Assembly: GCA_002069945.1 (NCBI GenBank) | Contig: MWCH01000001.1 | Span: 90,923 to 154,922, forward strand | Reading direction: 5' to 3' | Source of the DNA: Microgenomates group bacterium ADurb.Bin219 | GTDB taxonomy: Bacteria; Patescibacteriota; Microgenomatia; UM-FILTER-40-11 | Length of the DNA stretch: 64,000 nt | In this document: piece by piece, positions 29,029-32,876 of the stretch | Position numbering within the stretch: position 1 is the stretch's first letter | Layout: each line of letters begins with the position of its first letter | The notes under the pieces: model-generated | The model's input: only the letters and a program-made list of their open reading frames with translations | Databases searched by the model: none | Told to the model about the DNA's origin: nothing | Translations under genes and position numbers: made by a program

Positions 29029-29558
29029 TTATTTTTACTGTTATGAAACACCGAGTTGCCGGAAAAAAATTCAGCCGTAATACCAAAGAACGAAAAGCTT
29101 TATTTTTATCTTTAGTTCGTTCTTTGGTGGAAAGAGGAGTTTTGGTTACTACTCTGACAAAAGCCAAAACTACCAAAAGATTAACCGAAAAACTGGTAAC
29201 TTCGGGGAAAAAAAATTCGGTTGCCGGCCGTCGGGAGGTTTTTTCCTTTTTGCGCGATAAAAAACTGGCAAATTATTTGGTTGACGAGATTGTCCCTCTT
29301 TTTAAACAAAGATCCGGTGGTTATTTGCGCTTAATTCATTTACCTCCCCGAAAAGGAGATGCGGCGCCGATGGCCAAAGTGGAATGGGTTGAATTATTGC
29401 CGAAAAAGGAAGTTAAAGAAGAAGTAAAATCTTTGGTCAAGAAAGATTCTGATTCAAAAGTAGAGAAAACTGAGCCGGTTGGAAAAGAGAAAGAACCGGA
29501 AAAGACCAAAAAAACCGTTAAAGAGATAAAAGAAAAAAAGGATAAAAATGAAAAATAA
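29025..29558 (+). CDS. rplQ: 50S ribosomal protein L17, with a long Lys/Glu-rich C-terminal extension
   Basis: HRVAGKKFSRNTKERKALF..L...L. Confidence 0.92.
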   Translation: MIIFTVMKHRVAGKKFSRNTKERKALFLSLVRSLVERGVLVTTLTKAKTTKRLTEKLVTSGKKNSVAGRREVFSFLRDKKLANYLVDEIVPLFKQRSGGYLRLIHLPPRKGDAAPMAKVEWVELLPKKEVKEEVKSLVKKDSDSKVEKTEPVGKEKEPEKTKKTVKEIKEKKDKNEK

Positions 29559-29973
29559 TCTTAAACCAACCAAGAAAAACGAGATTAAAAGGGAGTGGCA
29601 TTTAATTGATGCCGGAGAGAAAATTTTAGGCAGATTGACCAGTGAAATTACTTCCTTATTGATCGGAAAGAACAAACCGTATTTTGTCAATTATTTGGAT
29701 TGCGGCGATTATGTTGTTGTTGTCAACGCCGCCCAAATTAAAACAACTGGCGAAAAGGAAAAAAATAAAAAATACACCCGTTATTCCGGTTATCCGGGCG
29801 GTTTGAAAACAATTACTCTGGAAAAATTAAGAGTTGAACATCCGGAAAGAATTATTGAGTATGCAGTGCGGAATATGTTGCCGAAAAATAAGCATAGGGA
29901 TCAGCGGATGGCCAGACTCAAAATATTTGCCGGTGACCAGCATCCTTATCAGGATAAGTTTAAAAAAGGTTAA
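29548..29973 (+). CDS. rplM: 50S ribosomal protein L13
   Basis: REWHLIDA....LGRL.S.I...L.GK.KP.F. Confidence 0.95.
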   Translation: MKNNLKPTKKNEIKREWHLIDAGEKILGRLTSEITSLLIGKNKPYFVNYLDCGDYVVVVNAAQIKTTGEKEKNKKYTRYSGYPGGLKTITLEKLRVEHPERIIEYAVRNMLPKNKHRDQRMARLKIFAGDQHPYQDKFKKG

Positions 29974-29986
29974 AAAAGGAAAAATT

Positions 29987-30481
29987 ATGCCAAAAATAAA
30001 GAAATCCCCAAAAACAGAAGAAACAAAGGCCGAAGTTATAATGCAAAAAGAAATCAAAACGGAGAAAAAGCCGAAAACAGAAGCGAAAAAGATAAAATAT
30101 ATTTTTTCAGTCGGCAGAAGAAAAAGAAGCGTTGCTTTGGTCAAGCTTTATGCCGGTAAGGGTAAATCTGTTGTAAACGGAAAGCCGATTGAAGAGTATT
30201 TTTTAGGACGGACTGCCGCAATTCTTTATCGCCGGCCGTTGGCTCTTCTTGGAGCGGAGGAAAATTATTATTGCACTTCAAGTATTAAAGGTGGCGGAAA
30301 AGCCGGTCAGTTGGAAGCTTTTATTCATGCTTTATCCCGCGCTCTAGTCCAAGCCGATAAACAGAATCGAAAAATCCTAAAGGAGAATTTATTTCTCAGA
30401 AGAAATCCCAAGGAAAAAGAAAGAAGAAAACCGGGTTTGGCAGGAAAAGCCCGCAAGAGGAAACAATCACCGAAAAGATGA
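29987..30481 (+). CDS. rpsI: 30S ribosomal protein S9 with a Lys-rich N-terminal extension. The start is the ATG at 29987, not 29834.
   Basis: GRRKRSVALVKL..G.G...NG....Y............GGG..GQ..A...A.SRAL. Confidence 0.9.
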   Translation: MPKIKKSPKTEETKAEVIMQKEIKTEKKPKTEAKKIKYIFSVGRRKRSVALVKLYAGKGKSVVNGKPIEEYFLGRTAAILYRRPLALLGAEENYYCTSSIKGGGKAGQLEAFIHALSRALVQADKQNRKILKENLFLRRNPKEKERRKPGLAGKARKRKQSPKR

Positions 30482-31026
30482 AAAAACAACTTGCCGGTTT
30501 TACTTTACGGCTGACAGTTTTTTTACTGTTTACCGTTTATTATTTACTGTTCATCACTCCCATCCGGGCCGTTTGTCCGGTCTGCACCGTCGCGGTTGGC
30601 GGCGGTTTACTTATTTCCCACTACCTCGGAGTGGACGATTTAATTGCCGGAGTTTGGATCGGAGGATTGATTTTATCTTTTGGTTTGTGGACGGGATCTT
30701 CCCTGAAGAGAAAATATTTTAAGTATCAGGAGTGGTTTTGGACGGCCGGATTGTGGATAATGACCATCTTTGGGTTAAAACAAGCGGGATTTATCGGCCA
30801 CCCAACCTGTAAAATTCACGGCCACGACAAGTTGCTTTCGGGCATCGTTTTTGGCACCATTGCTTTTGTTTTGGGATTTTTGTTGGACTTATTTTTAAGG
30901 AAAATGAATAAGACCAATAAAGGGAAAGCTCTTTTTCCTTATCAGAAAGTAATTTCTCCCTTAATATTTTTAATCTTGGCAACCGTTTTTTCGGCTCAAC
31001 TTTGTCGGTTGGGTCTTAAACCATGA
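30478..31026 (+). CDS. Hypothetical polytopic membrane protein (182 aa) with a CPVC motif and a His-rich loop
   Basis: Four or five hydrophobic helices. AVCPVCTVAV at the end of TM1, and HPTCKIHGHD in a later loop. The start overlaps the rpsI stop (translational coupling). Confidence 0.5.
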   Translation: MKKQLAGFTLRLTVFLLFTVYYLLFITPIRAVCPVCTVAVGGGLLISHYLGVDDLIAGVWIGGLILSFGLWTGSSLKRKYFKYQEWFWTAGLWIMTIFGLKQAGFIGHPTCKIHGHDKLLSGIVFGTIAFVLGFLLDLFLRKMNKTNKGKALFPYQKVISPLIFLILATVFSAQLCRLGLKP

Positions 31027-31535
31027 AAGACGAAATTAAAATTCAGCAATTATTGGCCAAAGTGAAAACAGTGGAAAAGGGGGAGAAACTTGATCTTTCT
31101 TCGGCCGAAGATCTTTCCATTGCGGTCATGAATTTAATTTCCATTGAGGAACATTTATTCTTTTCCGGCGCCAAAACCGGTGATGATAAATATTACGATC
31201 TTTTAAATGAGATTCGGGAGATGCGCAAATCCTTATTAAAAAATATCATTAAGGATTATCAGGGAGAAGATTGGTGCATTTCCAAACACTTGTTGGCCGG
31301 CTGTATGAGATTGATGGAGGTTGGGACGAAAAGTCTTTCCGCGGGAAATAAAAAAGAGGCTCAAAATTATTTCAAAATGGCTTATTCGCTTTACAATCTT
31401 TTTTGGGGCCTTAATTTAAAACTGGTAAATTCTTCCGAATTGAAAAAAGCCAAGTTCGACCCTGATGCGGCCAAAGGCTTTGTTGGAAAATTGGGAGAAA
31501 TTATCAAAAAGGCAATTGATTGCTGTCGGGAATAA
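31023..31535 (+). CDS. Hypothetical soluble protein (170 aa)
   Basis: ORF overlapping the upstream membrane-protein stop by 4 nt. No recognisable motifs. Confidence 0.4.
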   Translation: MKDEIKIQQLLAKVKTVEKGEKLDLSSAEDLSIAVMNLISIEEHLFFSGAKTGDDKYYDLLNEIREMRKSLLKNIIKDYQGEDWCISKHLLAGCMRLMEVGTKSLSAGNKKEAQNYFKMAYSLYNLFWGLNLKLVNSSELKKAKFDPDAAKGFVGKLGEIIKKAIDCCRE

Positions 31536-31557: not shown

Positions 31558-32876
31558 ATGGCGATTTTTCTTTTCTTTTTTTCTTTGTTTTTAAGACTTT
31601 ATCATTTTCCGGAAATTGAATTTAAACTGGACGAATCTTTAGCGGTTTTAAAGGCAAGCCAATACTGGTTAACCGGAAAATTACCCTTAAGCGGTTTGGT
31701 TTCCAGTACCTTAGCCAGGAATCCGCCTTTGTTTATTTATCTTTTGTCGCCTTTAACCATCATCTCGTCGGATCCGCTTTTCTTGACCTTCTTCTTTGCT
31801 TTATCGGGCAGCCTGGCCGTTTGGCTTCTTTACCGGTTATTAAAAAAATTTTCTTCCACTTGGGCATTTTTTTCGTCAATCTTGTTTGCCACTTCCGCCT
31901 GGCCGGTTCTTTTTTTCGGAAGATTTGGGCGCAAAATCTTTTACCCCTGTTTTCAATAATGATTATTTATTTGGCCTCGCGGTTGGCAACCAGGAAGGAC
32001 GGAAAAACGGTTTTTTTGCTGGTGGTTTTATCTTTTTGGTCATTTCAAATTCATTTTTCCGGTATTTTAACTATTCCCTGCCTCATTCTTCTCTTTATTT
32101 TTTTACGGGTAAGAAATTTTAAACAAATTATTGGCGGATTATTGGTTGGACTTCTTCCTTTAACGCCGTATTTACTTGAACAAAATCGATCTGGTTTTCG
32201 CGACCTGGCCTTACTTTTTTCCAGCTAGCAGGGAGGATATTTTGATTTTCACTCTTTTATCACTCCCTTTCGTATCGGTTCCGGTTTTTATTTTGCCCGG
32301 GTATTGGGAGCCGATTATTTTGAGTTTTTTTCAACCTTACCTTTCAGACAATTGATCTTGCCGGTTTTTAATTTGATGACTTTATTGGTTGGAATAGGAT
32401 TGCCTTTTTCCTTTTTTAAAGGAAAGAAAACGCTGGTTTTTAATTTCTTTTTTCTTTTGATGATGCTGGTTTCTTTTTTAAGCCGGCGGCCGGCCATGCC
32501 TTTTTACGAAGAACTGTATTTTCCGTTAATTTTTATTTTTGCCGGTTTGGCATTAACGCAATTGTCCGCAATTTCCCGATACGGTCGATTATTTAGCGGA
32601 ATTTTTGTTTCTTTAATTGTTTTTGCCAATCTTGTTTTTCTTTTTCATTTTTATCGTTTTGTTCATCTTAAGCAGCAAATCCAGGGAGATTACGGTTTGG
32701 TTTATTCCCAAAAAAAGGTTTTAATTGATCAATTCGTTAATCGATATCGGCTAGAGTCGGAGGAAAAAAGGGTTCGCTTGTACGGCCAGGTAATTTTCAG
32801 CAATTATTTTTACGATACCGAAAAAAAAACTATTTTCCTAATAAAGAGCTTTTGTCGCTGGTCAATTATGAATTAA
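31558..32876 (+). pseudogene. Disrupted GT-C (ArnT/PMT, GT39/GT83-like) membrane glycosyltransferase
   Basis: The N-terminus FLRLYHFPEIEFKLDESLAVLKASQYWL matches the GT39/ArnT first-loop DE motif. A frame-1 to frame-0 switch occurs near 31920-31935 (homopolymer-rich), and an in-frame TAG at 32226-32228 separates two same-frame fragments. The whole region is hydrophobic and polytopic. Confidence 0.55.

Follow-up and report, generated by a model that had tools for sequence, protein, structure and literature searches.

A conserved two-gene module behind rpsI in a Microgenomates bacterium and its possible role as a transmembrane thiol–disulfide relay of Patescibacteria

The 64,000-nucleotide stretch of DNA analysed here (the window) comes from Microgenomates group bacterium ADurb.Bin219 (contig MWCH01000001.1, positions 90,923 to 154,922). 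Part of it is the 3' end of a long ribosomal super-operon, which runs from rpoB/rpoC through rpoA, rplQ, rplM and rpsI in a genome with a guanine plus cytosine (GC) content of 41%. Two genes of new families, here designated M and S, are attached to this end. Gene M (30478–31026) encodes a polytopic membrane protein of 182 residues. Gene S (31023–31535) encodes a protein of 170 residues, which homologs, conservation and an AlphaFold2 (AF2) model describe as leaderless and all-helical. Both lie on the forward strand, as do rpsI (ribosomal protein S9; 29987–30481; Pfam Ribosomal_S9, 2.8e-30, residues 43–164) and every element of M and S located below; coordinates are those of the window. The two proteins carry conserved cysteines, and they are considered here as candidate members of a thiol–disulfide relay across the cytoplasmic membrane.

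The three genes are joined without spacers. The TGA of rpsI (30479–30481) shares an ATGA with the ATG of M (30478–30481), and the TGA of M (31024–31026) shares another with the ATG of S (31023–31026). Both junctions were read directly from the sequence and bear out the stop–start overlaps and translational coupling given in a preliminary description of this DNA. The motif AAGGA stands 5–6 nt ahead of the ATG of rplM (29548–29973; Pfam L13, 7e-45) and of rpsI, at 6 nt in the latter. No Shine–Dalgarno-type motif of this kind was found at a usable distance before M or S; for this reason their translation probably depends on reinitiation-type coupling and, for want of Shine–Dalgarno motifs of their own, may fall well below that of rpsI, in contrast to the very high co-expression put forward in the preliminary description. 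Relatives of the window have gaps of 5–7 nt between rpsI and M rather than an overlap, and one (L092) has gaps of 122 nt and 57 nt at the two junctions and no overlap. A programmed frameshift fusing M to S was considered and rejected, as the junction geometry differs among relatives (−4, +1, +5, +57 nt). A scan for promoters and terminators gave results at chance level, and an Rfam search returned no RNA element.

Neither protein of the window has a Pfam or NCBIfam match above noise. Sequence-profile searches of the PDB brought up no match for M and, for S, no more than designed proteins and TPR noise; fold comparison with the PDB gave no characterised fold for M and a non-significant match for S. 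Profile and structure searches thus assign neither protein to a well-known family, and the earlier view of both as uncharacterised holds. The genes are nevertheless real and conserved. Homologs of M form 475 clusters, all unnamed or hypothetical, with source names that include Woesebacteria, Beckwithbacteria, Moranbacteria and Staskawiczbacteria. At 90% identity the homologs of S fall into at least 7981 clusters, and at 50% identity into 645; a pattern scan with one genome per species found S encoded in at least 575 genomes. Titles of S-bearing records name Microgenomates, Parcubacteria, Peregrinibacteria, Berkelbacteria, Wirthbacteria and Doudnabacteria; across these classes S is ~60% identical, with ~50 invariant columns in 30 sequences.

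Conservation of gene order was examined by tblastn in the best 80 species-level loci and also in the loci of the window clade, and the open reading frames of 86 loci were clustered. In most of the 80, tblastn placed M next to S, on its upstream side and in the same orientation; over the 86 loci this arrangement holds in 70, with a median gap of 5 nt. The order rpoA–rplQ–rplM–rpsI–M–S is kept in all eight loci of the window clade, where S identity is 64–82% and the rpsI–M–S spacing ranges from overlaps to 122 nt. This clade is Shapirobacteria-like, and one of its records is named Shapirobacteria. By contrast, tblastn found rpsI, rplM, rplQ or rpoA within 5 kb of M–S in none of the 80 other species-level loci, and the linkage is not a phylum-wide one. 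Because it is present in eight of eight loci of one clade and in none of 80 elsewhere, the linkage to rpsI goes back to a move of an older gene pair within one lineage: the conserved unit is M–S. The ribosomal-operon link is therefore not what defines the pair, although the synteny with rpsI for which the preliminary description asked does exist within the window clade. Nor is the attachment indicative of a ribosomal role. A function of M–S in translation, to which the coupling to rpsI and its retention in the eight related loci might point, has next to no probability, given the absence of the ribosomal linkage from the other 80 loci, the integral membrane nature of M, and the lack of any RNA-binding or ribosomal family signal or Rfam element.

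Some records carrying the module bear unexpected names. A contig binned with the DPANN archaea (L014, Candidatus Aenigmarchaeota archaeon ex4484_52) has a typical M–S pair with 64% identity in S. It is probably a mis-binned piece of Patescibacteria, horizontal transfer being the other possibility. Dozens of third-party records of metagenome-assembled genomes titled 'uncultured Gammaproteobacteria', 'Pseudomonadales' or 'Bdellovibrionales' carry an M–S locus of the type seen in the candidate phyla radiation (CPR, Patescibacteria), and their taxonomic titles appear unreliable.

The AF2 model of M (predicted local distance difference test score, pLDDT, 84) has six helices (residues 5–25, 34–49, 54–75, 84–102, 118–143 and 156–179) and a hairpin at 107–117. 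In 118 homologs C33, P34, C36, G51, D54, W60, G107, D117 and Q156 are invariant, and A31, D53, W71, P109, G115, K118, F153 and P161 nearly so. The first transmembrane segment (TM1; residues 8–25) resembles a signal peptide: it has a positive N-region and a hydrophobic stretch, and small-x-Ala at residues 29–31 (30499–30570 with the segment) comes right before V32–C33. A31 is present in 117 of 118 sequences. These features, taken from the alignment and the profile of lysine plus arginine (K+R), make a signal peptidase I site just before V32–C33 possible; cleavage there would be a prediction from the sequence. The CPVC motif follows (C33-P34-V35-C36; 30574–30585), with both cysteines and the proline in 118 of 118 sequences. 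It had been placed at the end of TM1; the model puts it after that segment, at the N-terminus of helix 2. The thiol-redox or metal-binding character that the preliminary description saw in M is borne out.

The two faces of M were assigned by the positive-inside rule. Mean K+R in the 118 homologs is 2.0 for the N-terminus, 3.8 for the Lys/Arg-rich loop 75–84 (30700–30729) and 3.4 for loop 143–157, and these segments are predicted to be cytoplasmic. Segment 26–54, with CPxC, helix 2 and an acidic turn, is placed outside together with the hairpin and the C-terminus. The acidic turn D53–D54 (30634–30639; D54 118/118, D53 111/118), between helices 2 and 3, has a mean K+R of zero. Since the whole of segment 26–54 falls on the outer side, helix 34–49 would not cross the membrane fully; it may be a re-entrant half-helix whose N-terminal CPxC would be biased towards the thiolate by the helix dipole. 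The N-in orientation is supported by an M homolog (P0115) in which a NifX/Nitro_FeMo-Co domain (PF02579, 6.5e-15) is joined through an Arg-rich linker ahead of TM1. This fusion, a single example on a 2.9-kb contig, also hints at a cofactor or metal link. Conserved motifs thus lie on both predicted faces: CPxC, the acidic turn and the hairpin outside, and F153-P-Y-Q156-K157 (30934–30948; Q156 118/118, F153 109/118) inside. The latter is a candidate docking site for S.

The hairpin loop G107–K118 (GHPTCKIHGHDK; 30796–30831) is predicted to be extracytoplasmic and has strand elements at 111–116 in the AF2 model. By column counts G107, P109, G115, D117 and K118 are family-wide; C111 (30808–30810), H114 and H116 are clade-specific, and outside the window clade the consensus is GHPxNKxxGxDK. 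The HPTCKIHGHD loop (residues 108–117) noticed at the outset is therefore present, but its histidines and cysteine are not a family feature. C111 occurs in 57 of 118 homologs, and all 57 also have a C-terminal cysteine, C176 in the window (31003–31005), which is a candidate second, or shuttle, disulfide partner on the outer face. In one rpsI-linked locus (L093) His114 and His116 are lost while the cysteine pair C111/C176 is kept; on this evidence the clade trait is the second cysteine pair, which probably faces outward, and the histidines are decoration of a sub-clade. CWC, CFC or CGC has been gained independently within the hairpin loop in other lineages.

S is modelled with a pLDDT of 83, and its fold matches are only to generic helical bundles. 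Weak matches include rubrerythrin, sulerythrin and Dps bundles as well as HEPN and PhoU-like proteins. Three conserved elements stand out. Helix 2 carries D-L-S-S-x-E-D-L-S ... M-N-L-I-S-I-E-E-H (residues 24–44; 31092–31154), in which D24, L25, S26, D30–S32, M36–L38, I41, E42, E43 and H44 are invariant columns of the alignment. The core motif is W84-C85-I-S-K88-H89 (31272–31289). Among 150 divergent representatives, taken from clusters at 50% identity, R65, R68, E82, W84, C85, K88, H89 and L91 are conserved at 90% or more. The third element is D166-C167-C168-R-E170 (31518–31532), a vicinal Cys–Cys two residues from the C-terminus. Of 250 sequences, 201 have such a pair, whose distance from the end is never other than 2 or 3 residues; the consensus is [D/N]CCxE. 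The preliminary description had not singled out the features of most weight, which are the invariant CPxC of M, and Cys85/His89 and the terminal Cys–Cys of S. A CaaX-like reading of CCxE, with its weak fold match to ICMT, was rejected as coincidence; HEPN (Rx4-6H) and AhpD (CxxCxxxH) were likewise discarded for S, neither motif being present.

Natural variants of S point to the same residues. Two homologs (P0297 and P0344) contain a LAGLIDADG intein between Trp84 and Cys85 (...EDW[CLPP...VVHN]CISKH). Inteins usually occupy functionally critical sites, and the position marks Cys85 as critical; inteins are also unusual in a small protein of unknown function. Three proteins (P0241, P0243 and P0245) are tandem S–S forms whose first copy is without Cys85, His89 and the Cys–Cys tail, which suggests that S works as a dimer. 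Among the 150 representatives, no extra domains recur on S other than inteins (two proteins) and thioredoxin-fold domains (three proteins). In P0260 a leaderless thioredoxin-like domain (CGSC; Pfam Thioredoxin, 28 bits) precedes S. P0277 and P0285 combine S with a glutaredoxin-like TCPHC domain, which in P0285 is inserted immediately ahead of the last helix, the one ending in SCCKE. The P0285 domain passes the Pfam Glutaredoxin threshold with 33.7 bits and is homologous to the protein c2 described next (hhalign 99.1%, E 8.5e-19); the alignment pairs all four cysteines.

A third family, c2 (~124 residues), is encoded directly upstream of M in 36–37 of the clustered loci. The gap at the c2–M junction has a median of 1 nt, and ten of these junctions are ATGA-type overlaps. 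It consists of an N-terminal anchor, a variable linker and a small thioredoxin-fold domain with CPHC and a second invariant cysteine pair; the CPHC cysteines are invariant in 12 sequences. The c2 profile matches a solved glutaredoxin (7c10, E 7.9e-7) and thioredoxins, which places it in the thioredoxin/glutaredoxin fold. Net charge is +2.3 on the N side of the anchor and +0.6 on the C side, consistent with an N-in, C-out anchor and an outward-facing domain. Forms of M with two cysteines have c2 adjacent in 36 of 63 cases. The four-cysteine form (CPVC plus C111/C176) is found in all eight rpsI-linked loci, none of which has c2 adjacent; because these eight loci form one clade, the pattern counts as a single evolutionary event and not as a statistical result. 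In the window itself, no c2 homolog or other thioredoxin-like CxxC protein was found over the 64 kb. The complete genome of Woesebacteria Ch104b (L067) has two copies of c2 within 5 kb. The first accompanies M on the minus strand, and the second immediately precedes S without an intervening M gene; c2 can therefore pair separately with either partner.

Most neighbourhoods contain housekeeping genes, among them those for ThrRS and ComF. Other genes recur near the module. Within 5 kb, 12 of the 86 loci encode a heavy-metal P-type ATPase (CopA-type, with HMA and E1-E2 domains and a CPC motif), in varied arrangements. An operon of ArsR (with a CVC motif), Thioredoxin_3 and ArsP_1 is near the module in 7–8 loci; in L041, L064, L067, L045 and L080 it stands directly upstream of c2–M–S or of S, on the same strand. 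One locus (L046) has an ABC-3 metal permease and its ATPase after S, the ATPase reading frame overlapping the end of S. A second anchored thioredoxin-like protein, with CWSC, is encoded near the module in four loci.

These observations are best accommodated if M and S, joined by c2 in about half of the loci, form a cysteine-based transmembrane thiol–disulfide relay that is widespread in Patescibacteria, a reading to which we assign a probability of roughly 45%. Thiol chemistry is favoured by the conservation of the cysteines, by the motifs CPxC and CPHC, by the fusions of S to thioredoxin- and glutaredoxin-type domains and by the tight c2–M–S operon. The recurrence of further thioredoxin-fold and copper-export genes nearby is counted as support, and so are the intein position at Cys85, the degenerate tandem copies of S, the second cysteine pair of M where c2 is not adjacent and the conserved motifs on both predicted faces of M. 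The relay would operate as follows. (i) Leaderless S would act on the cytoplasmic face, with Cys85 paired to His89 and the C-terminal Cys–Cys as a mobile swinging arm, and would be recharged by thioredoxin- or glutaredoxin-type proteins. (ii) The arm would exchange with the invariant CPxC of M on its short, probably re-entrant helix. (iii) M would hand the disulfide or dithiol to the extracytoplasmic CPHC protein c2. In the window clade, where c2 is not adjacent, the C111/C176 pair of M would assume the role of c2. Conservation, operon structure, cysteine patterns, domain fusions and the want of known relatives are observed; physical contact between M and S, the position of CPxC in the bilayer and the direction of flow are the parts of this scheme that we infer. 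Transfer through a single cysteine pair has an established parallel in proteins of the DsbD type, which carry electrons across the membrane to thioredoxin-like proteins on its outer side (PMC8238504).

Flow through the relay could run in either direction, which is itself among the points that count against it. A reductive flow of the Scs or DsbD kind would agree with the thioredoxin fusions, with S being cytoplasmic and with the copper-export neighbours; the Scs systems are a precedent for reductive envelope thiol pathways tied to copper stress. An oxidative flow would agree with the DsbA-type CPHC of c2 and with the way in which the domain logic of S recalls Erv/QSOX. A second difficulty, and the weak point of the scheme, is the topology of M, a protein that also has no fold similarity to DsbD, DsbB or VKOR. 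Positive-inside analysis places its CPxC on the outer side, and no cysteine is conserved on the cytoplasmic face. With CPxC predicted outside, the relay needs this motif to be buried and reachable from the inside through a cavity. A third set of points concerns the location and nature of S. The leaderless fusion of S to a glutaredoxin-like domain carries a homolog of c2, which is predicted to face outward. In ~7 of 270 S homologs an N-terminal anchor of N-in appearance would place the protein outside; for P0268, which is among them, the 4 kb upstream contain no M, and the contig ends ~375 bp downstream. The conservation of S, with invariant Glu, His, Arg, Tyr and Trp, exceeds the needs of a simple carrier and hints at a cofactor or catalysis. 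Finally, the cysteine features of S, M and c2 could bind a soft metal.

This last possibility leads to the rival that survives best, possible though unlikely, in which a thiophilic ion such as Cu(I) or Zn(II) would be passed from c2 to M and on to S by ligand exchange, in the logic of MerP–MerT–MerA. The soft-metal ligands would be the outer CxxC of c2, CPxC and Asp residues in M, and in S the Cys–Cys arm followed by Cys85/His89, making S a cytoplasmic metallochaperone or acceptor. The neighbouring heavy-metal ATPases, the ArsR–Thioredoxin_3–ArsP_1 operons directly upstream and the ABC-3 permease all speak for metal, as does the His3-Cys-Asp loop of M in the sub-clade of the window. The possible signal-peptidase cut would leave V-C-P-V-C as the mature N-terminus of M, and some transporters bind metal through a processed N-terminus. 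In MerA a vicinal C-terminal Cys–Cys is the device that hands off Hg(II), and the tail of S resembles it. The His-rich loop, however, is not family-wide and has already been lost within the clade. The domains recurrently joined to S are of the thioredoxin or glutaredoxin type, not HMA or another metal domain, and such thioredoxin-fold fusions are less well explained by metal transfer. The c2 motif is a CPHC of the DsbA or glutaredoxin type with no further metal ligands, no Pfam match to a metal-transporter family was obtained (MerT/MerC, HupE/UreJ, CDF and P1B-ATPase), and housekeeping genes are present in most neighbourhoods.

Less probable again is a role for S as a zinc-stabilised or redox-sensing regulatory or scaffold protein. 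A Cys3-His site could be made by the Cys-x3-His of the core and the terminal Cys–Cys (C85, H89, C167 and C168). M would then only anchor S or act in an unrelated membrane process, and the operon would reflect regulation. The generic bundle matches of S, which include HEPN and PhoU-like proteins, are compatible with such a role, and so are the anchored variants of S and, in the one whose locus was inspected (P0268), the lack of M over the 4 kb upstream. This proposal does not account for CPxC being invariant in M, for the fusions of S to thioredoxin and glutaredoxin domains or for the second cysteine pair where c2 is not adjacent; moreover, no conserved DNA-binding or sigma-factor partner is encoded nearby.

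A stronger claim for the relay would be that Patescibacteria, which to our knowledge are without quinones and respiratory chains, own a disulfide pathway that is a third, independent solution beside DsbB/VKOR and DsbD/CcdA. We regard this as doubtful. S would then be a new cytoplasmic helical-bundle thiol oxidoreductase or disulfide generator with a Cys–His site and a swinging arm, and M a new conduit with a single CPxC on a re-entrant helix, leading to an outer DsbA-like glutaredoxin. Literature searches found no paper on disulfide formation in Patescibacteria/CPR. A specifically oxidative version is more improbable still. In it S would be a helical-bundle generator of disulfides, using a cofactor or metal and an external oxidant, and would pass them through M to a DsbA-like c2, which would give these quinone-less organisms disulfide formation in exported proteins. 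CPHC is the active-site motif of DsbA, and c2 has it; the bundle, thioredoxin-fold fusions, degenerate tandem copy and terminal shuttle pair of S parallel Erv/QSOX; a cofactor site is suggested by the large number of Glu, His, Tyr and Trp residues that are invariant in it; rubrerythrin, sulerythrin and Dps are among its weak fold matches; and the two-pair logic of DsbB/VKOR would have a likeness in the four-cysteine M of the window clade. Yet a leaderless S would have to make disulfides in the reducing cytoplasm and export them. It has no CxxC beside a recognisable cofactor motif, no match to Evr1_Alr and no di-iron ExxH pairs, and most Patescibacteria are thought to be anaerobic, which fits poorly with the scheme.

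Several further features were seen beside these genes. The ribosomal proteins upstream have extended ends: S9 carries a Lys-rich N-terminal extension of ~40 residues (29987–30115; its Pfam match begins at residue 43), and L17 a Lys/Glu-rich C-terminal tail of ~55 residues (29390–29558). Directly 3' of S, on the forward strand, a PMT_2-like membrane glycosyltransferase gene of the GT39/ArnT type (31558–32876) is broken across three frames, in pieces at 31558–31959, 31821–32228 and 32304–32876. It is either a pseudogene or split by assembly frameshifts. In relatives Band_7, NUDIX or YceG genes take its place after S. The S family also extends beyond typical CPR contexts (P0266, P0268, P0326, P0333, P0340, P0354 and P0360; L087 and L089), with membrane-anchored variants and variants with Cys-rich tails (e.g. 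CGCG...SCCYGG). One of these outlying variants is encoded beside PNPase and guanylate cyclase, and one glutaredoxin-inserted form lies on a GC-rich contig.

S is among the most strongly conserved function-unknown proteins of the phylum, is targeted by inteins and is present in at least 575 species-level genomes. If the thiol relay is correct, it would explain the redox control of exported proteins, such as pili and surface enzymes of host attachment, in ultrasmall, quinone-free, host-dependent bacteria, and would represent a non-homologous third solution to a textbook problem. With metal as the cargo, the module would still be a transport route of a new, cysteine-lined kind. Experiments in Escherichia coli have clear handles in its conserved cysteines, in its natural fusions and in the existence of two forms (a two-cysteine M with c2; a four-cysteine M without adjacent c2).

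Comparison with known systems was made at the level of family membership and of design. The separation of M from DsbB and VKOR, already suspected, was upheld by family searches and fold comparison. DsbB (PF02600) gave no match at E<=1 for M of the window and none at E<=5 for 31 M proteins, and hhalign of the M profile against an approximate E. coli DsbB sequence gave 0.1%. M matches neither VKOR (PF07884) nor its four-helix core with CxxC in the last core helix, and DsbD/CcdA (PF02683) has no Pfam match in the window M and the 31 members. The one-cysteine-per-half layout of DsbD/CcdA is also absent, both invariant cysteines of M lying within a single CPxC. S belongs neither to Evr1_Alr, with a bundle CxxC next to FAD, nor to the ferritin-like di-iron proteins (rubrerythrin, Dps), with two E...ExxH sets. 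Matches below threshold in the 31 M proteins were to DUF3007 (12/31), RseC (4/31) and VKOR (3/31); all were treated as composition or motif matches and rejected as homologs. That to DUF3007, a family whose function is listed as unknown in Pfam, covers residues 29–75 (the hairpin of CPxC, helix 2 and helix 3), scores 19.5 bits at best against a threshold of 25, and could be remote homology or mere composition.

The likenesses that remain are of design. MerP–MerT–MerA shares with the module a three-part layout, with CxxC in the outer protein, a cysteine pair in the membrane and Cys–Cys at the C-terminus of the cytoplasmic protein; it differs in that there is no Mer homology, that c2 has a thioredoxin fold and not the ferredoxin-like HMA fold, and that M–S is a phylum-wide set of housekeeping type and not a resistance island. 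C-terminal redox arms are known from the Cys–Cys or Cys–Sec of high-Mr thioredoxin reductase, the arm of DsrC and the Cys–Cys tail of MerA. S has the same swinging-arm layout, a cysteine pair two to three residues from a free C-terminus; folds and enzymes are unrelated, and the resemblance is one of device only. With Erv/ALR and QSOX, S shares the bundle, thioredoxin-fold fusions, a degenerate first tandem copy (psi-Erv–Erv) and a cysteine pair on a terminal arm, whereas it has a single Cys85 with His89, no bundle CxxC and no flavin-binding signature, and is cytoplasmic by sequence. Like DsbB and VKOR, M has CxxC at the predicted outer end of a membrane helix and a partner, c2, with a DsbA-type CPHC, and in three of the 31 M proteins ~30 residues match the surroundings of the VKOR CxxC (18.8 bits against a threshold of 27.5). 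The two-pair logic may be matched in the window clade by the second loop/C-terminal pair, C111/C176 beside CPVC, whose outer placement is predicted by the positive-inside rule. Most M proteins have only the CPxC pair; the fold of M differs, and no quinone site is evident. DsbD/CcdA and ScsB–ScsC offer the remaining parallel, in a small polytopic protein with one essential-type cysteine pair and an outward thioredoxin-fold partner, in the coupling to cytoplasmic thioredoxin-type donors and, as in Scs, in the association with copper-homeostasis genes. Although confidence in the mechanism is limited, the module may be a non-homologous counterpart of these known redox systems, built from two uncharacterised families.

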